A DNA stretch of 8,949 nt from a virus (Duplodnaviria; Heunggongvirae; Uroviricota; Caudoviricetes). Shown piece after piece: positions 1-6,147 of this stretch. The stretch lies in IMG/VR virus record IMGVR_UViG_2585427710_000015; one strand, given 5' to 3'. The translations under genes and the position numbers were made by a program. How positions within the stretch are numbered: position 1 is the stretch's first letter; every line of letters starts with the position of its first letter. Under the pieces are notes generated by a model that searched no databases, was not told the DNA's origin, and saw only the letters and a list, made by a program, of their open reading frames with translations.

Positions 1-696
1 CAGGATATTCACGAAGCAAGCCTGAACGAGTCGGTTAAATCAGAGCAGTCACCGCGGGTGGTGCTCTGGGAAATCGACCTGACGGTGCAGGGCGGTGAGC
101 GGTATTTTTTCTGCAATGAGCTGAATGAAAAAGGGGAGCCGGTGACCTGGCAGGGGCGTGAATATCAGGCGTACCCGATTGAGGGGAGTGGCTTTGAGAT
201 GAACGGAAAGGGCAGCAGTGCCCGCCCGTCGCTGACGGTGTCCAATCTTTTCGGCCTTGTCACCGGGATGGCGGAGGATTTGCAGAGCCTGGTGGGGGCC
301 ACGGTGGTCCGTCGCCGGGTGTATGCGCGTTTTCTGGATGCGGTGAACTTTGTGGCAGGCAATCCTGAGGCAGACCCGGAGCAGGAGCTGAGAGACCGCT
401 GGGTGGTGGAGCAGATGTCAGAGCTGACGGCCATGACAGCCTCGTTTGTGCTGGCAACACCGACGGAGACGGACGGAGCGCTGTTTCCCGGTCGCATCAT
501 GCTGGCGAACACCTGTATGTGGGATTACCGGGGCGATGAATGCGGGTATAACGGTCCGGCAGTGGCGGATGAGTTCGACAACCCCACCACGGATATCCGG
601 AAGGACAGATGCAGTAAATGCATGCGCGGGTGTGAGATGCGCGGCATGGTGGCTAATTTTGGCGGTTTCCTTTCCATTAATAAACTTTCGCAGTAA
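1..696 (+). CDS. L: Tail tip assembly protein L (gpL-like), 5'-partial: the frame is open from base 1 and the true start lies upstream of the window
   Basis: Frame 1 is open from position 1 (QDIHEASLNESVKSEQSPRVVLWEIDLT...) to TAA at 694-696. Translation matches my recollection of lambda gpL along its length (VLWEIDLT..GERYFFCNE..NEKGEPVTWQGR..GRIMLANTC.W.YRGDECGY..FGGFLSINKLSQ). The C-terminal Cys cluster (C..C..CSKC..C) is present. Synteny L-K-I-J supports the call. Similarity is recalled, not computed. Confidence 0.9.
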   Translation, partial: QDIHEASLNESVKSEQSPRVVLWEIDLTVQGGERYFFCNELNEKGEPVTWQGREYQAYPIEGSGFEMNGKGSSARPSLTVSNLFGLVTGMAEDLQSLVGATVVRRRVYARFLDAVNFVAGNPEADPEQELRDRWVVEQMSELTAMTASFVLATPTETDGALFPGRIMLANTCMWDYRGDECGYNGPAVADEFDNPTTDIRKDRCSKCMRGCEMRGMVANFGGFLSINKLSQ

Positions 697-706
697 ATCC
701 CGTTTT

Positions 707-1450
707 ATGACACAGACTGAATCAGCGATTCTGGCGCATGCCCGGCGGTGTGCGCCTGCGGAGTCGTGCGGCTTCGTGGTGAGAACGCCGGAGGGGGAGC
801 GGTATCAGCCGTGTGTGAATATCTCTGCAGAGCCGGAGGCGTATTTTCGTATTGCACCGGAAGACTGGCTGCGGGCAGAGATGCAGGGGGAGATTGTGGC
901 ACTGGTCCACAGTCATCCCGGTGGTCTGCCCTGGCTGAGCGAGGCCGACCGGCGGCTGCAGATAAAAAGTGCACTGCCCTGGTGGCTGGTCTGCCGGGGG
1001 GAAATTCACAAATTCCGCTGTGTGCCGCACCTGACCGGACGGCGCTTTGAACACGGGGTGACGGACTGTTACACCCTGTTCCGGGATGCATACCATCTGG
1101 CGGGGATTGAGATGCCGGATTTTCACCGTGAGGATGACTGGTGGCGCAACGGTCAGAACCTGTACCTGGACAATATGGAGGCCACCGGCTTTTACCGGGT
1201 GTCCCTGTCCTCTGCACAGGCAGGCGATATCCTGCTGTGCTGCTTTGGCGCATCGGTGCCGAATCATGCCGCCATTTACTGTGGCAACGGTGAGCTGCTT
1301 CACCATATACCTGAACAACTGAGTAAACGGGAGAGGTATTCAGAGAAATGGCAACGACGAACGCATTCTGTCTGGCGTCACCGCCACTGGTCCGCATCTG
1401 CCTTCACGGGGATTTACAACGATTTGGTCGCCGCATCAGTCTGTATGTGA
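707..1450 (+). CDS. K: Tail tip assembly protein K (gpK-like) with MPN/JAMM and NlpC/P60 motifs
   Basis: ATG at 707 lies 10 nt after the L stop with no obvious SD, so translational coupling is possible. The ORF runs to 1450 (247 aa). A JAMM-type motif H-S-H-x7-S-x2-D (HSHPGGLPWLSEAD) and NlpC/P60-like Cys (DCYTLF) and His (NHAAIY) are visible. The 3' end overlaps I by 103 nt in another frame, as I recall for lambda K/I. The listed ORF beginning at 446 is the same frame running back into L; 707 is the first ATG after the L stop. An internal start (e.g. the ATG at 881) cannot be excluded. Confidence 0.88.
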   Translation: MTQTESAILAHARRCAPAESCGFVVRTPEGERYQPCVNISAEPEAYFRIAPEDWLRAEMQGEIVALVHSHPGGLPWLSEADRRLQIKSALPWWLVCRGEIHKFRCVPHLTGRRFEHGVTDCYTLFRDAYHLAGIEMPDFHREDDWWRNGQNLYLDNMEATGFYRVSLSSAQAGDILLCCFGASVPNHAAIYCGNGELLHHIPEQLSKRERYSEKWQRRTHSVWRHRHWSASAFTGIYNDLVAASVCM

Positions 1451-2028
1451 ACACGGCAGCGGAGGCCATCCGTGCCCTGTCGCAGCAGGTGCCGGGATTC
1501 CGCTGTCAGATGAACGAAGGCTGGTACCAGATACGTATTGCCGGTGAGGATACCGCGCCGGAGGCGGTGTATGCCCGTCTTCATGAACCGCTGAGCGGGA
1601 GGGCCGTGATTCATATTGTACCGAGGCTGGCAGGGGCCGGGGGAAATGGTGTTTTTCAGGTGGTGCTGGGGGTTGCAGCGATTGTCGGGTCATTTTTCAC
1701 TGGTGGTGCAACACTGGCGGCATGGGGCGCAGCCCTGAGTGCCGGAGGGCTGACTGCCACCACGATGCTGTTCTCACTGGGTGCCAGCATGATACTGGGT
1801 GGTGTGGCTCAGATGCTGGCCCCGAAGGCAACGACGCCGGAGTATAAAAGCACGGATAACGGCAGACAGAACACGTATTTTTCGTCACTGGATAACATGA
1901 TTGCCCAGGGGAACCCGATGCCGGTGCCTTACGGTGAAATGCTGGTTGGTTCACGACGGATATCCCAGGACATCAGCACCCGTGATGAGGGCGGAGACGG
2001 GAAAGTGGTGGTTATCGGACGGGGATAA
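1348..2028 (+). CDS. I: Tail tip assembly protein I (gpI-like)
   Basis: 226-aa ORF. The motifs RICL.GDLQRFGRRI, AVIHIVPR.AGA and the Gly/Ala-rich hydrophobic stretch (GSFFTGGATLAAWGAA..GG.T) plus the C-terminal NTYFSSLDNM.AQGN..PV.YGEM.VGSR..SQ.IST.DEG match recalled lambda gpI. The start overlaps the K 3' end by 103 nt. Confidence 0.9.
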   Translation: MATTNAFCLASPPLVRICLHGDLQRFGRRISLYVNTAAEAIRALSQQVPGFRCQMNEGWYQIRIAGEDTAPEAVYARLHEPLSGRAVIHIVPRLAGAGGNGVFQVVLGVAAIVGSFFTGGATLAAWGAALSAGGLTATTMLFSLGASMILGGVAQMLAPKATTPEYKSTDNGRQNTYFSSLDNMIAQGNPMPVPYGEMLVGSRRISQDISTRDEGGDGKVVVIGRG

Positions 2029-2066
2029 AAATAAAAAAATCCCGCAGAGTTAGCGGAGCTGCGGGA
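2029..2066 (-). terminator. Intrinsic (rho-independent) terminator for leftward transcription, placed immediately right of the I stop codon
   Basis: Read on the minus strand: UCCCGCAG-cuccgcuaacu-CUGCGGGA followed by UUUUUUUAUUUUUAU. The stem is 8 bp and GC-rich (+ coords 2040-2047 pairing with 2059-2066), the loop 11 nt, and the U-tract is the complement of + 2029-2039. On the + strand the same hairpin is followed by AGAGAUACG with no U-run, so it terminates only leftward transcripts. Confidence 0.7.
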
Positions 2067-2127
2067 AGAGATACGAAGATTAACTGTAAGGAGTTATTAT
2101 TATGTCACAGCAAAAAAACGGTAACGC
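2029..2127 (-). ncRNA. Candidate ~95-100 nt small RNA, transcribed leftward from the promoter at 2134-2161 and ending at the terminator at 2029-2066
   Basis: A near-consensus sigma70 promoter and an intrinsic terminator on the same (minus) strand bracket about 95 nt with no plausible ORF. Predicted RNA, 5' end approximate: cugcguuaccguuuuuuugcugugacauaauaauaacuccuuacaguuaaucuucguaucucuucccgcagcuccgcuaacucugcgggauuuuuuuauuuuuau. The TSS is predicted and the RNA is hypothetical until detected. Confidence 0.4.
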
Positions 2128-2140
2128 AGAGAAATTATAA
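2102..2140 (+). CDS. Tiny ORF (12 codons, MSQQKNGNAEKL) with a strong Shine-Dalgarno; possibly a leader peptide or a remnant translation start, and possibly not expressed
   Basis: TAAGGAG at 2087-2093 is followed after 8 nt by ATG at 2102, and the ORF ends at TAA 2138-2140. The SD and the whole ORF are fully complementary to the candidate minus-strand RNA. The peptide is short and hydrophilic and does not look like a type I toxin. Confidence 0.15.
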   Translation: MSQQKNGNAEKL

Positions 2141-2161
2141 GCGCCACTGGGATTTTGTGAA
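2134..2161 (-). promoter_or_regulatory. Sigma70-like promoter on the minus strand: -35 TTCACA, 16-bp spacer, -10 TATAAT
   Basis: On the minus strand, -35 TTCACA is the reverse complement of + 2156-2161 (5/6 match to TTGACA). The 16-bp spacer is the complement of + 2140-2155. The -10 TATAAT is the complement of + 2134-2139 and is a perfect consensus hexamer. The upstream minus-strand sequence, which is the 27-bp repeat, is AT-rich and could act as an UP-like element. Predicted TSS is near + coordinate 2127. Confidence 0.55.
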
Positions 2162-2187
2162 AATGTGAAGAATTTCAGAAATTTTAT
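2161..2187. repeat. Copy 1 of a perfect 27-bp direct repeat AAATGTGAAGAATTTCAGAAATTTTAT containing a CRP-box-like TGTGA-N6-TCAGA
   Basis: Identical 27-mers occur at 2161-2187 and 2340-2366. The flanking sequence 5' of each copy is similar but degenerate (cactgggattttg versus cacgggaatttg). The core resembles the CRP consensus AAATGTGA-N6-TCACATTT, with AAATGTGA exact and TCAGA versus TCACA. Confidence 0.8.
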
Positions 2188-2339
2188 GTTGCGGAGCTGA
2201 ACTAAAAAACGCTCCCGCAATACACCTGGATATTAACGGGAGGAACGAATAGTCACCTTAAGGAGTTGCGATTAATTGCTTTTATTGACCGCAGGTAATC
2301 TACCCATCCGGCAAGGTTTCCTCCACGGGAATTTGCCGG

Positions 2340-2366
2340 AAATGTGAAGAATTTCAGAAATTTTAT
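2340..2366. repeat. Copy 2 of the perfect 27-bp direct repeat (CRP-box-like TGTGA-N6-TCAGA)
   Basis: Identical to 2161-2187 and 179 bp downstream of it. It lies 12 nt upstream of the rightward terminator hairpin and 86 nt upstream of the J start codon. Confidence 0.8.
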
Positions 2367-2377
2367 TCCGTCATGAC

Positions 2378-2409
2378 ACAGGCACCCTCCGGGGTGCCTG
2401 TCGTTTTCT
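2378..2409 (+). terminator. Intrinsic terminator on the + strand, 43 nt upstream of the J start
   Basis: Perfect 10-bp inverted repeat ACAGGCACCC (2378-2387) / GGGTGCCTGT (2392-2401) with a 4-nt loop UCCG, followed by CGUUUUCUG. On the minus strand no U-run follows the hairpin. Confidence 0.6.
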
Positions 2410-2451
2410 GGCATAAACAGATTCAGACATCAGACAGGAGAGGGGGACAGA

Positions 2452-5400
2452 GTGGGTAAAGGGGGTGGCAAGGGGCACACACCGCGTGAGGCGAAGGACA
2501 ATCTCAAATCCACGCAGATGATGAGCGTGATTGATGCCATCGGTGAGGGACCGGTGGAAGGCCCGGTGAAGGGACTGCAGAGTATTCTGGTGAACAAAAC
2601 CCCGCTGACGGACACGGACGGTAATCCCGTGATACACGGTGTGACCGCCGTCTGGCGTGCCGGGGAGCAGGAGCAGACACCGCCGGAAGGCTTTGAGTCC
2701 TCCGGTGCTGAAACCGCACTGGGCGTGGAAGTGACGAAGGCAAAGCCGGTGACGCGCACCATTACGTCCGCGAACATTGACCGCCTGCGGGTCACCTTCG
2801 GGGTGCAGTCACTGTTGGAGACCACCTCAAAGGGCGACCGTAATCCCTCTTCTGTCCGACTGCTGATTCAGTTGCAGCGTAACGGTAACTGGGTGACGGA
2901 AAAGGATGTCACCATTAACGGCAAGACCACCTCACAGTACCTGGCGTCGGTGATTCTGGAGAATCTGCCTGAGCGGCCCTTTAACATCCGGATGGTCCGG
3001 GAGACGGCGGACAGCACCACGGACCAGCTGCAGAATAAGACGCTCTGGTCGTCATACACCGAAATCATCGATGTGAAACAGTGCTACCCGAACACGGCCA
3101 TTGTGGGGCTGCAGGTGGATGCGGAGCAGTTCGGCGGCCAGCAGATGACGGTGAACTACCATATCCGCGGTCGCATCATCCAGGTGCCGTCAAACTATGA
3201 CCCGGAAAAACGCACCTACAGCGGTATCTGGGACGGCAGCCTGAAACCGGCATACAGCAATAACCCGGCCTGGTGCCTGTGGGACATGCTGACTCACCCG
3301 CGCTACGGGATGGGAAAACGCCTGGGGGCCGCGGATGTGGACAAGTGGGCGCTGTATGCCATCGGGCAGTACTGCGACCAGACGGTCCCGGATGGTTTCG
3401 GGGGCACAGAGCCGCGGATGACCTTTAATGCGTACCTGTCACAGCAGCGTAAGGTGTGGGATGTCCTGGGGGATTTCTGCTCGGCGATGCGCTGTATGCC
3501 GGTATGGAACGGTCAGACGCTGACGTTCGTTCAGGACCGTCCGTCGGATGTGGTGTGGCCGTACACGAACAGCGATGTGGTGGTGGATGATAACGGCGTG
3601 GGGTTCCGCTACAGCTTCAGCGCCCTGAAGGACCGCCACACGGCGGTGGAGGTGAATTACACCGACCCGCAGAACGGCTGGCAGACCTCCACGGAACTGG
3701 TGGAAGACCCGGAAGCCATACTGCGCTACGGGCGCAACCTGCTGAAGATGGATGCGTTCGGCTGTACCAGCCGCGGTCAGGCCCACCGTGCCGGACTGTG
3801 GGTGATAAAGACAGAACTGCTGGAAACGCAGACGGTGGATTTCACGCTCGGGTCTCAGGGGCTGCGGCACACACCCGGTGACATCATTGAAATCTGTGAT
3901 AACGACTATGCCGGGACCCTGACCGGCGGACGCATCCTGTCCATCGATGCCGCCAGCCGCACACTGACGCTGGACCGTGAGGTGACACTGCCGGAAGCAG
4001 GTACATCGACGGTGAACCTGATTAACGGCCGTGGTAAGCCGGTGCGCGTGGACATCACTGCACAACCCGCCCCGGACCGGATACAGGTCAGCACCCTGCC
4101 TGATGGTGTGGAGACATACGGTGTATGGGGACTCTCCCTGCCGTCACTGCGTCGTCGCCTGTTCCGCTGTGTCTCCATCCGGGAAAACACGGACGGCACC
4201 TTTGCCATCACGGCGGTGCAGCACGTACCGGAAAAAGAAGCCATCGTGGATAACGGGGCCCGCTTTGAGCCGATGTCCGGCTCACTGAACAGCGTCATCC
4301 CGCCGGCGGTGCAGCACCTCACGGTGGAGGTGAGTGCCTCAGACGGCCAGTATCTGGCGCTGGCGAAATGGGACACGCCGCGGGTGGTGAAGGGTGTGCG
4401 CTTCAGTCTGCGCCTGACCAGCGGAAGCGGTGAAAACAGCCGTCTGGTGACCAGCGCCATCACTGCCGACACGGAGCACCGTTTCAGTGGCCTGCCGCCC
4501 GGGGAATACACCCTGACGGTCAGGGCGATAAACAGCTACGGCCAGCAGGGCGAACCTGCCACCACCACGTTCCGGATTAACGCACCGGCAGCACCGGCCA
4601 GCATTGAACTGACGCCGGGGTATTATCAGATAACGGCGGTCCCGCATCTTACGGTGTATGACCCGACGGTACAATTTGAGTTCTGGTTTTCGGAGGCAAA
4701 AGTCGCAGACACCGCACAGGTGGAAACGTCCGGCCGTTATCTGGGTACCGGCAGCCAGTGGAGTGTCTCCGGCCCGCACATTAAGCCCGGGAAGGATTTC
4801 TGGTTTTATGTGCGCAGCGTCAACCTGGTGGGGAAATCTGCGTTTGTGGAGGCCAGCGGGCAGGCCAGCAATGATGGTGAAGGGTATCTGGAAATTTTCC
4901 GTGGGCTGATAGATGAGGCGCTGCTGGGGAAGGCACTGAAAGAGCGTATTGATGCGTCAGCCCTGCGTACTGAGGTCACGCAACTGGAAGAAGACATCCG
5001 CCAGCGGCTGGAGACGGATGTTGCGGAAGTGACCCGAAAAATCGGGGAGGCGGAAAACAGCCTCACGCAGCTGGTTGCGAAAAAGAATGAGGACCAGACG
5101 CTGGCCATCGCGCAGGTGAGTCAGCAGGTGGACCGGGTGAGCAGTGAAATCACACAGACAGTCAGCCAGAGCACGGAGGAAAACGCCAGGCAGATAGCGC
5201 AGGTCCGCCAGTACGTGGATGACAAAGGGAGTGAAATCACCTCGACCACGGATAAAAAGCTGGAAGACCAGAGCGCGACCATACAGCAGATACAGCAGGT
5301 CCAGTCAGACACGAATGATGAGCTGGCAGCGCTGTACATGCTGAAGGTGCAGAAAACGAAAAACGGCATTCCGTATGTTGCCGGTATTGGTGCGGGGATT

Positions 5401-6147
5401 GAGGATGCTGATGGCCAGACGCTGAGCAATATTCTGCTGCAGGCGGACCGTATCGCGATGATTACCCCGGAGAACGGCAACACCACGCCGCTATTTGTGG
5501 CGCAGGGGAATCAGTTGTTCATGAACGATGTGTTCCTGAAGCGGCTGTTTGCGGTGAGTATCACCTCGTCCGGCAATCCCCCGACGTTTTCCCTGACGCC
5601 GGAGGGCAGGCTGACGGCCCGCAATGCGGACATCAGCGGACATATCAGTGCGAACTCGGGCACGCTCAATAATGTTGTGATAGCGGAGAACTGTACGATA
5701 AATGGCACGCTGAAAGCGGGAAACATCATCGGGGATCTTATCAAGGGCGGGAGTGGCGCTTTCCCGCGTCAGAATGAGGGCAGTGTGAACTGGCCTTCCG
5801 GAACGCGCACGTTCACTGTGTATGATGATCACCCGTTTGACCGCCAGATAGTGGTACTTCCGCTGACATTTCGCGGAAGCAGGCGTACCGACAGCGGCAG
5901 AACAACATATTCGATGTGTTATCTGAAGGTGCTGATGAACGGTGCAGTGATTTATGACGGCGTGGCGAATGATGCACCTCAGGTTTTCGCCCGAATTGTG
6001 GATATGCGTGCGGGAGGTGGACACGTAACCCTGACATTCACGGTCACGTCCACACGGCATTCGGGAAATATTCCGCCGGATACGTTTGCCAGTGATGTAC
6101 AGGTTCTTGTGATGAAAAAGGGGGCATCAGGTATCAGTATCAGCTGA
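2452..6147 (+). CDS. J: Central tail fibre / host specificity protein J (gpJ-like), 1231 aa
   Basis: GTG start at 2452, preceded by AGGAG at 2436-2440 and a G-rich stretch. The N-terminus [22 protein letters not shown] and the protein throughout are collinear with recalled lambda gpJ (1132 aa). The C-terminus (...[21 protein letters not shown]) is also lambda-like. There is about 100 aa of extra heptad-like sequence around residues 809-980 relative to lambda. Confidence 0.95.

Follow-up and report, generated by a model that had tools for sequence, protein, structure and literature searches.

The gap between the tail genes I and J in the DNA analysed here (hereafter the window: 8,949 nucleotides of a Caudoviricetes virus, IMG/VR record IMGVR_UViG_2585427710_000015) is best explained as two tandem sRNA gene cassettes lying on the strand opposite to the tail operon, a reading to which we give a probability of about 0.8. 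This figure applies to the explanation as a whole: its anatomy, homology, position and distribution were observed, expression and Hfq dependence are taken from the literature on homologues, and CRP control, targets in trans and the activity of cassette 2 are parts that we infer. Most of the locus is already explained and it is no new kind of element. Judged by alignment, cassette 1 belongs to a known sRNA family and cassette 2 is the undescribed part.

The gap spans 423 bp, from the stop codon of I at 2028 to the GTG start of J at 2452. The first-pass annotation had described it as AT-rich, non-coding, and furnished with repeats and with terminators in both orientations, and we find the same. 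There is no ORF of 60 codons or more in 2029-2451; the longest, of 46 and 53 aa, are both on the minus strand. The GC content in 200-bp windows is 0.39-0.46 over 2000-2399, compared with 0.55-0.65 in I and J (about 0.58 overall in the flanks). The leftward terminator has its stem at 2040-2047/2059-2066 and a minus-strand U7 at 2039-2033, and the rightward one is a perfect 10-bp stem (2378-2387/2392-2401) followed by CGTTTTCT. Two pairs of repeats, spaced by about 175-179 bp, are present in the gap: one of 44 nt (2144-2187 and 2323-2366, 86% identity) and one of 35 nt (2068-2102 and 2240-2274, 71% identity). Scans of the gap identified three terminator-like sites, when 0.8 are expected by chance, and two promoter-like sites, when 0.9 are expected. 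Searches for a frameshifted remnant of a gene revealed none, and the gap ORFs of 46, 50, and 53 aa had no match in Pfam. With E <= 1 as the threshold, no covariance model of Rfam 15 matched either strand of the window. The features of the locus are as follows.

1348..2028, plus strand: tail assembly gene I, the left flank, overlapping K as in lambda (ORF list; RefSeq record of strain 99-3311, where the locus is identical; tblastn matches to phage I genes).
2033..2066, minus strand: Rho-independent terminator of cassette 1, with stem TCCCGCAG/CTGCGGGA (2040-2047 with 2059-2066), 11-nt loop, and U7 tail at 2039-2033 (terminator scan and fold).
2033..2127, minus strand: predicted sRNA 1, a PasB / EcOnc22-24 variant (74% identity to E2348/69 PasB; same position and strand as PasB and EcOnc22/23/24).
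2075..2095, minus strand: probable seed of sRNA 1, made of GUUAAUCUUC (complement of 2075-2084) and AACUCCUUA (complement of 2087-2095).
2118..2123, minus strand: P2, a downstream -10-like hexamer, TACCGT (TAnnnT at a fixed offset from the box).
2134..2161, minus strand: P1, an upstream sigma-70 promoter with -35 TTCACA (2161..2156), 16-bp spacer, and -10 TATAAT (2139..2134) (promoter scan, 11/12).
2161..2187, no strand assigned: box 1, AAATGTGAAGAATTTCAGAAATTTTAT, with a CRP-like core TGTGA-N6-TCAGA at 2164-2179 (exact duplicate in the window).
2188..2203, no strand assigned: inter-cassette junction, perhaps a short remnant of an I 3' end (alignment with I 3' ends and with junctions of other arrays).
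2204..2242, minus strand: terminator of cassette 2, with stem CUCCCGU..AAUA / UAUU.GCGGGAG (2212-2242), then CG and U6 (2209-2204) (fold).
2204..2290, minus strand: predicted sRNA 2 (type B), about 87 nt if started from the TAGATT -10 (conserved core).
2297..2302, minus strand: P2-type -10 of cassette 2, TAGATT, 4/6 (fixed-offset hexamer analysis).
2340..2366, no strand assigned: box 2, same sequence as box 1, with its core at 2343-2358 (exact duplicate in the window).
2378..2409, plus strand: rightward Rho-independent terminator just upstream of the J RBS (scan and fold; equivalent hairpin in lambda).
2452..6147, plus strand: J, the tail tip / host specificity gene and right flank, with a GTG start and the RBS AGGAGAGGGGG at 2436-2446.

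Cassettes 1 (about 2033-2187) and 2 (about 2204-2366) are built alike: on the minus strand, a Rho-independent terminator and its U tail, then an unstructured body of 60-90 nt, -10 elements, and an identical 27-bp CRP-like box. In cassette 1, the terminator scan gives a smaller stem (2057..2041) that overlaps the one listed above. The stem is kept among variants, with one compensatory change from GC to AU, and the loops vary. A U.G wobble in the variant alignment pairs on the minus strand only. The 3' end of sRNA 1 is predicted at about 2033 and its 5' end at either about 2127, from P1, or about 2111, from P2 or by processing, for a length of 79-95 nt. The predicted fold shows a single-stranded body followed by the terminator (z = -3.4), and the consensus structure of the variants consists of the terminator alone. 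GUUAAUCUUC and AACUCCUUA are the most conserved unpaired blocks in an alignment of 24 type-A variants and are single-stranded or weakly paired in the predicted folds; they are probably the seed of sRNA 1. The 8-bp terminator stem, the U7 tail, and the single-stranded region before the stem are features of an Hfq-binding module. The hexamer at the position of P1 scores at least 5/6 in 58 of the 67 unique cassettes, and TAnnnT is kept at a fixed offset from the box in 66 of the 67, in 12 versions. RNA-seq coverage places the 5' end of PasB in E2348/69 6 nt downstream of the hexamer equivalent to P2. The published sizes of PasB and EcOnc22 (83-85 nt) are smaller than the 95-98 nt predicted from the upstream promoter, so that the 5' end of sRNA 1 may derive from P1, from P2, or from a processing step.

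Two sets of published observations fall on this locus. PasB is an 83-nt RNA of the prophage PP6 of EPEC E2348/69 (NC_011601, minus strand, 1466343..1466261; Pearl Mizrahi 2021, PMC8550237). It was confirmed by northern blot, requires Hfq for stability, was found in RIL-seq chimeras with 37 other RNAs in a lysogen whose late operon is silent, and reaches higher levels in LB than in DMEM with glucose (PMC8550237). We find that it sits between I, which ends at 1466255, and J, which starts at 1466496. The E2348/69 spacer aligns with cassette 1 element for element (74% identity to PasB over 91 columns). PasB shares with cassette 1 the I-J slot, the antisense strand, the terminator stem, the U7 tail, TTCACA-16-TATAAT, the box, and the AACUCCUU block, whereas the loop and the 5' third differ. 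The published northern probe for PasB, AATCCCGCAGTGATCGCGGAGCT, matches the terminator of cassette 1, with an identical stem and a different loop. The other set concerns EcOnc22, EcOnc23, and EcOnc24 of O157:H7 Sakai, which were described as Hfq-CRAC peaks (Tree 2014, PMC4104026, Table S2). EcOnc22 is an RNA of about 85 nt in northern blots, is destabilised in an hfq deletion, and has its targets listed as unknown (PMC4104026). The three peaks are all inside I-J spacers, of Sakai Sp15 (Stx1), Sp14, and Sp11, respectively, antisense to the tail genes. They were published in an older version of the genome, and with an offset of about +139, calibrated on AgvB1 at 1.94 Mb and used at 2.2-2.9 Mb, the EcOnc peak falls on the sRNA body. 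The VT1-Sakai spacer aligns with the whole spacer of the window except for cassette 2, and the Sakai variant differs from cassette 1 in lacking the TTCACA -35. By position and alignment, PasB and EcOnc22-24 are the same locus and cassette 1 is a variant of this family. The RNA elements suggested by the first-pass annotation are therefore present, but they are not anonymous because the locus had been published under these names.

The second cassette is, on the same kind of comparison, a diverged and undescribed type-B relative of PasB / EcOnc22-24. Its identity to PasB is 57%, which makes it a relative rather than the same sRNA. A recent study of PasB reported variants with few nucleotide differences, the closest pair on one chromosome being 28 kb apart (Zhu, Shabalina and Storz 2026, bioRxiv 10.64898/2026.05.13.724894), so that neither tandem cassettes nor the type-B form are described there. 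The terminator stem of cassette 2 has 7+5 bp and, with the CG and U6 that come after it, likewise fits an Hfq-binding module; homologous stems are found in solo and array type-B cassettes, and the copy in the window includes a U.G wobble that pairs in the minus-strand RNA only. The core of sRNA 2, made of AAGGUGACUAUUCGUU (complement of 2244-2259) and AACUCCUU (complement of 2260-2267), is kept in 116 E. coli genomes and, across three subtypes, in 21 IMG/VR loci. Type-B cassettes stand alone beside I in two loci (L006 and L045). The position equivalent to P1 (2318..2313) reads AACCTT (2/6) and is degenerate. This loss of the upstream -10 makes the expression of cassette 2 uncertain.

Cassette 2 could then be a silent relic, i.e., a by-product of recombination with a decayed promoter, and the island would consist of one sRNA and a non-functional duplicate of about 180 bp. 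We regard this as a serious contender, with a little less than an even chance. The degenerate hexamer speaks for it, at a site where most cassettes have a good one, as do the absence of a -35, a 5' part that is mosaic and strongly diverged from the other type-B copies, and a whole-RNA fold of sRNA 2 that is no better than those of shuffled sequences (z = -0.4). Yet, the cassette retains an intact terminator, the type-B core, the TAnnnT hexamer at the fixed offset, and the box. Its unique part is covered over at least 80% at 95% identity or more in 27 E. coli genomes, and the sampled copies of the type found in the window differ by point substitutions only, although they are too closely related for selection to be demonstrable from them. 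BLAST gave no match to this unique part in isolated phage genomes; it is present in prophages and IMG/VR contigs.

The box is the most constant part of the cassettes. No exact duplication of 27 bp such as the one between boxes 1 and 2 is expected by chance (0 matches). The first 120 IMG/VR loci were picked by the box pattern and were thus excluded from the argument on conservation, which was made with samples picked by BLAST and by similarity of J. In a sample of 28 unique spacers for which the box played no part in the choice, the longest stretch without variation (AATGTGAA) lies within it. The half-sites are fixed, the central 6 bp are variable (seven versions), and the spacing from the box to both -10 elements is invariant. 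CRP binds a 22-bp site with consensus AAATGTGA-N6-TCACATTT. The left half of the box matches it at 8/8 positions (AAATGTGA) and the right half at 5-6/8 (TCAGA, not TCACA). The centre of the core is at -59.5 from the 5' end of PasB assigned by RNA-seq and at -60.5 from a start 7 nt past TAnnnT, about 1 bp off the canonical class I position of -61.5. It is at -44.5 from P1, which is non-canonical for class II, and we therefore reject a class II activation of this strong promoter by CRP. Compared by eye with their generally known consensus sequences, Cra, IHF, FNR, and Fur fit the box less well than CRP; Cra has TGAA-N4-TTCA in common with the box, which lacks the central CG. When we searched one genome per species, E. 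albertii was the only Escherichia genome with a true match to the box. The remaining true matches fall in very small contigs of unrelated assemblies, which suggests contamination, and all others are chance matches.

These data suggest that transcription of the cassettes is probably CRP/cAMP-dependent. The box might instead bind another regulator, act as an A/T-rich promoter element of the UP type, or be a hot spot of recombination through which the cassettes stay exchangeable, an alternative that we find rather unlikely. The geometry is only approximately that of class I (-59.5 to -60.5), the right half-site is off consensus, the outer bases fit TGAA-N4-TTCA as well, and the invariance reaches past the 22-bp site into TTTTATTC. 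Furthermore, the two boxes of the window are 100% identical between diverged flanks, a pattern that recombination or gene conversion at this site would produce. Dependence on CRP accounts better for the perfect left half-site, for half-sites that are fixed around a centre with seven versions, and for the invariant spacing to both -10 elements. The higher level of PasB in LB than in glucose-containing DMEM points in the same direction, with the proviso that temperature also differs between these conditions.

Comparison with lambda clarifies what was inserted. The first-pass annotation put the gap in lambda at roughly 60 bp, and this is its exact size (from the end of I at 15444 to the start of J at 15505). 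It already has an equivalent rightward hairpin and T run, without the cassettes. Hence, the terminator upstream of J is ancestral and the inserted DNA corresponds to the cassettes. The two terminators had been taken as the bounds of the island, and this does not apply to the rightward one. The latter is a strong structure in the window (-27.2 kcal/mol, z = -5.5), and spacers of a 343-bp class have a different rightward hairpin in the same place. Neither the scan nor inspection by eye found a plus-strand promoter able to use it. The junction between the cassettes (2188..2203) resembles the 3' end of I, weakly in the window and more clearly in STEC299 and RM10042, and is possibly a relic of it.

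The island is neither private nor recent. Related spacers, about 235-250 bp long, occur in 147 phage records (mainly Stx phages) and in 780 of the 5426 complete E. coli genomes. The full two-cassette allele of 423 bp was found in 34 E. coli genomes, the second cassette (about 180 bp) being the rare part. Strains with this allele are, for example, 99-3311 (NZ_CP101310, 3021063-3021485) and O103 ML775. Since homologues of I were detected by tblastn in 1687 phage records, a spacer of similar size and related sequence is a feature of the Stx-type lineage and not of most lambdoid phages. The element is an old and widespread component of Stx-type prophages. Related prophages have one, two, or four cassettes at the I-J junction, or the gene sodC. 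One may tentatively go further, to an idea that we hold as possible but distinctly short of even odds: the junction would be an expandable array of 1-4 interchangeable sRNA cassettes, with at least two seed classes and a common CRP-like box, built by recombination between co-resident prophages, and cassette 2 would be a functional, undescribed Hfq sRNA. If so, STEC strains differ in the repertoire and dose of sRNAs through the I-J locus alone.

The preferred reading of the locus as two sRNA cassettes can be put as a sequence of events. The cassettes would have been inserted between the stop codon of I and the ancestral terminator that precedes J. The RNA polymerase would start leftward at the near-consensus TTCACA-16-TATAAT, at a second -10 located 16 bp downstream, or at both, and transcription of sRNA 1 would end at the Rho-independent terminator with its U7 tail. 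The RNA produced is predicted to be about 80-95 nt long, its conserved and unstructured seed (GUUAAUCUUC / AACUCCUUA) preceding the terminator hairpin and U tail. By homology with PasB and EcOnc22, it would be stabilised by Hfq and pair in trans with mRNAs of the host and the prophages. The TGTGA-N6-TCAGA box, about 60 bp upstream of the downstream start, would probably confer dependence on CRP/cAMP. Cassette 2 would be a diverged type-B paralogue that has a separate terminator and core but the same box as cassette 1, and the two-cassette allele may have arisen by recombination between I-J spacers of different prophages.

The same anatomy might serve mainly in cis, if the leftward RNAs tuned processing of the late tail mRNA or the I:J ratio by pairing or by transcription collision, their trans targets being incidental. 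Each of these RNAs has perfect complementarity to the late tail mRNA over the I-J segment, the cassettes are always inside the late operon, on the opposite strand and directly upstream of the J RBS, and cassette numbers of 1-4 at this one site would scale the antisense dose. We nevertheless consider it improbable, because PasB forms chimeras with many other RNAs while the late operon is silent (PMC8550237), the conserved blocks are short and seed-like when an antisense role would constrain the whole RNA, and lambda tails assemble without any such RNA. Roles in cis and in trans can coexist. An even more remote explanation, to which we give very little credit, is that the gap holds a decayed protein gene or a small toxin/antisense module. 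It draws on a plus-strand Shine-Dalgarno-like AAGGAG (2089-2094) located 8 nt upstream of an ATG, which opens a 12-codon ORF (2103-2141); an antisense RNA runs across this ORF, an arrangement known from type I toxin-antitoxin loci. But this ORF is not conserved: E2348/69 lacks the ATG there, and the length of an A-run shifts the frame between variants. The peptide (MSQQKNGNAEKL) is hydrophilic, unlike type I toxins, the longer gap ORFs have no Pfam match, and the AAGGAG is the complement of the conserved sRNA block AACUCCUU.

Around one in seven complete E. coli genomes thus carries unlabelled sRNA genes in this gap, which has no annotation in RefSeq and no Rfam model. Their recognition is useful for annotation and for the study of how prophages rewire the post-transcriptional regulation of their hosts in STEC and EPEC. 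What matters in this respect is the identification of PasB and EcOnc22-24 as one locus, its modularity (1-4 cassettes, a second seed class, and the sodC alternative), and the presence of one control box common to all cassettes.

Other prophage sRNAs resemble those of the cassettes. AgvB, AsxR, and the sRNAs of the PR' moron site of Stx phages also bind Hfq, have fixed positions in lambdoid genomes, and are often multicopy in a genome (Tree et al. 2014). Unlike those of the cassettes, these RNAs are encoded downstream of Q/PR', have different sequences, and are much shorter (51-60 nt). The gap itself is not one of them, given their location at the PR' moron site, the different sequences, and the lack of a match to the Rfam models of AgvB and AsxR. 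Classical morons include lom and bor in lambda and sodC in O157 prophages. Like the morons of lambdoid phages (Juhala et al. 2000; Hendrix), the island is extra DNA between conserved genes, with lower GC content and its own promoter and terminator. The initial view of a moron-type insertion that encodes RNA rather than protein was right in this respect: there is additional DNA relative to lambda, of distinct composition, with its own promoter and terminator, and it carries RNA genes. It differs from a classical moron in that its cargo is non-coding RNA, with no conserved ORF or Pfam match, its unit is in tandem, and the rightward terminator is not part of it. In related prophages, the very same I-J junction holds a protein-coding moron, sodC.

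The gap between tail genes I and J spans 423 bp. Its longest ORF in the ORF listing has at most 53 codons, and RefSeq has no annotated feature inside it. Its GC content is 0.39-0.46, against 0.55-0.65 in the flanks, and two repeat families have copies about 175-179 bp apart, so the gap consists of two related units in tandem (cassette 1, ~2033-2187; cassette 2, ~2204-2366). The first-pass annotation had described 423 AT-rich base pairs with terminators at both ends and repeats, which we confirm in full, and had put the lambda I-J gap at roughly 60 bp; it is indeed 60 bp.

Features of the window around the I-J gap
Up to 1450: end of L, then K (lambdoid tail region)
1348-2028: I gene (ORF list and annotation)
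Left edge of the gap, minus strand: leftward terminator (terminator scan)
2161..2134, minus strand: sigma-70 promoter TTCACA-16-TATAAT (promoter scan, score 11/12)
2161-2187 and 2340-2366: 27-bp box, exact duplicate
2378-2401, then a T run, plus strand: rightward terminator (terminator scan)
2452-6147: J gene, GTG start (ORF list and annotation)
Up to 6839: Lom-like gene (ORF list and annotation)
From 6991: tail-fibre gene (ORF list and annotation)

Just 5' of the J RBS (2420-2436), the heptad CAGACAT varies in copy number between prophages, with extra copies in the spacer of one compared locus, L028.

Cassette 1 is a variant of a published RNA. PasB is an 83-nt Hfq-dependent sRNA of EPEC E2348/69 (PMC8550237), located on the minus strand of NC_011601 at 1466343..1466261 and detected with the northern probe AATCCCGCAGTGATCGCGGAGCT (PMC8550237, table S6). 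The annotation of this genome places the end of I at 1466255 and the start of J at 1466496; PasB thus sits in the spacer between the two, beside the I stop codon and in antisense orientation to the tail genes. The probe matches window 2038-2060, with an identical stem and a different loop. The spacers of E2348/69 and VT1-Sakai (240 bp each) align to the window element by element, all three sharing the order A run, terminator, body with AAGGAGTT, ATTATA, box, rightward hairpin, and J RBS. PasB and cassette 1 share 74% identity. The homologous Hfq-CRAC peaks EcOnc22, EcOnc23, and EcOnc24 were reported in Sp15, Sp14, and Sp11, EcOnc22 being an RNA of ~85 nt that is destabilised without Hfq (Tree et al. 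2014, PMC4104026, Table S2). In NC_002695.2 these peaks all fall inside 240-bp I-J spacers, opposite to the tail-gene strand and at equal relative positions. The published EcOnc coordinates refer to an older sequence version, in which AgvB1, of known sequence, is displaced by ~+139; with this shift applied, the EcOnc22 peak falls on two parts of the PasB-like RNA, its seed and the 5' half of its terminator. Two experimental studies have thus detected this RNA family, each under a name of its own. Rfam 15 offers neither a model of the family nor a match in the window, and a 2021 review gives the targets of EcOnc22 as unknown.

We gathered I-J spacers from IMG/VR contigs, complete E. coli genomes, and phage records, and aligned 67 unique cassettes. 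On the minus strand, each starts with a promoter region, continues with an RNA body of ~60-90 nt, and ends in a terminator that carries a U tail. In 24 diverse RNAs of the PasB-like type (type A), the only consensus structure is the terminator, where one GC-to-AU change is compensatory and one U.G wobble can pair in the minus-strand RNA only; within the body, conservation is highest in the unpaired blocks GUUAAUCUUC and AACUCCUU. Hfq-dependent sRNAs that act by base pairing are typically built in this way.

Conservation extends to two -10 elements, whose distances to the box are fixed. In 58 of the 67 cassettes the upstream hexamer has a score of 5/6 or more; it is TATAAT in the window and in E2348/69, whose copy also has a TTCACA -35. 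The downstream hexamer, TAnnnT, is present in 66/67 cassettes in 12 versions, as would be expected of a -10. RNA-seq coverage puts the 5' end of PasB 6 nt beyond this second hexamer, and the published sizes of 83-85 nt fit either a start at the downstream -10 or a longer transcript that begins at the upstream promoter and is then processed.

In a set of 28 unique single-cassette spacers, picked independently of the box and averaging 73.5% pairwise identity, the longest stretch without variation lies inside the box (AAATGTGAA-N5-TCAGAAATTTTAT). Its half-sites TGTGA and TCAGA do not vary, whereas seven versions exist of the six bases between them. Compared with the CRP consensus, the left half matches at 8/8 positions and the right half at 5-6/8. 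The box centre lies 32.5 bp from the upstream -10 (position -44.5), which is not the class II position, and 48.5 bp from the downstream -10 (position ~-60), which is close to class I. PasB levels are higher in LB than in DMEM with glucose (PMC8550237), which fits catabolite control and is confounded by temperature. Putative CRP control of the cassettes is our best inference.

Cassette 2 is a second type, which we named type B. Its unique part (2196-2335) has no match among isolated phage genomes and matches in 116 E. coli genomes and 21 IMG/VR loci. Type B has the terminator CUCCCGU..AAUA/UAUU..CGGGAG and the conserved core AAGGUGACUAUUCGUU. Loci L006 and L045 have it as a lone cassette adjoining I; in spacers with two cassettes (window, STEC299) it comes second, and in those with four (RM10042 and loci L060 and L171) it comes third. 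In the window its terminator, core, downstream TAnnnT (TAGATT), and box are all intact and its upstream -10 position is degenerate (AACCTT); a silent cassette 2 is a real, if not the favoured, possibility.

The 60-bp lambda gap has a hairpin and then a T run just before the J RBS, and a class of 343-bp spacers has a different rightward hairpin at this position. Hence, the pre-J terminator is ancestral, and the cassettes are DNA added between it and the I stop codon. The 343-bp spacers (loci L097, L110, and ~38 others) carry one PasB-type cassette and then an unrelated right part, with a rightward terminator (AAAACCCCGGTATC-TGCT-GATACCGGGGTTT) unlike that of the window, so a pre-J terminator was kept even where its sequence was replaced. 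In locus L034 (spacer of 1599 bp), a transposase-encoding insertion sequence lies inside the right part of a 343-type spacer. In the lambda gap (L127 1646-1705), AAAATGTTTTATGTGAAA precedes the hairpin and loosely resembles a collapsed box (AAAATGTGAA...TTTTAT), which could be a vestige or a coincidence. The inter-cassette junctions of STEC299 and RM10042 keep recognisable relics of an I 3' end, with only a weak trace in the window, which indicates that arrays were built by recombination between spacers of different prophages.

The addition of cassettes is old and common in one lineage. A related spacer is found in 147 phage records, mostly of Stx phages, against 1687 records with an I homologue, and in 780 of 5426 complete E. 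coli genomes (median copy number where present, 3); the full 423-bp spacer is in only 34/5426. When each species was represented by a single genome, true matches came from E. albertii and from three very small contigs in unrelated assemblies. These contigs (L232, L223, and L214; 460-3408 bp) belong to assemblies labelled Streptomyces flavalbus, Parendozoicomonas haliclonae, and Asaia platycodi; L232 and L223 have I and/or J coding sequence alongside, and all three most likely reflect E. coli or prophage DNA as a contaminant. In a sample drawn by J similarity, 64/75 spacers have at least one complete cassette. In the other 11, a minus-strand Cu/Zn superoxide dismutase gene replaces the box and upstream promoter, and the sRNA body and terminator remain. 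This gene (Pfam Sod_Cu, E = 3.9e-32) has its own hairpin and lies upstream of the remaining body and terminator, in a spacer of 851 bp in L133 (1650-2500); the variant also occurs in L135, L136, L140, L141, L144, L153, L166, L168, L183, and L203. In spacers of 909-929 bp (L004 2063-2971, L060, L171), four cassettes follow one another as A, A, B, A, the second lacking the upstream -10, like cassette 2 of the window. Partial BLAST matches suggest the presence of this array type in several dozen E. coli genomes. In the Stx1 prophage Sp15 (L128 16-1191 and 1-64), J is split into two annotated ORFs and the adjoining cassette is intact; the VT1-Sakai record notes J as mutation-truncated.

The first-pass view of a moron-like insertion with RNA rather than protein cargo is partly right: it stands for the extra DNA relative to lambda and for the cargo. 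It fails at the right boundary, since the rightward terminator has a counterpart in lambda; it underestimates the age, given the spread of the spacer; and the RNA was already published. Relative to PMC8550237, PMC4104026, and a 2026 preprint (bioRxiv 10.64898/2026.05.13.724894), which reports a distance of at least 28 kb between pasB copies on the same chromosome, the new elements are the equation of PasB with EcOnc22-24, the type-B paralogue, the tandem arrays of 1-4 cassettes, and the conserved CRP-like box with two fixed -10 elements. They do not amount to a new kind of element; they refine a known one.
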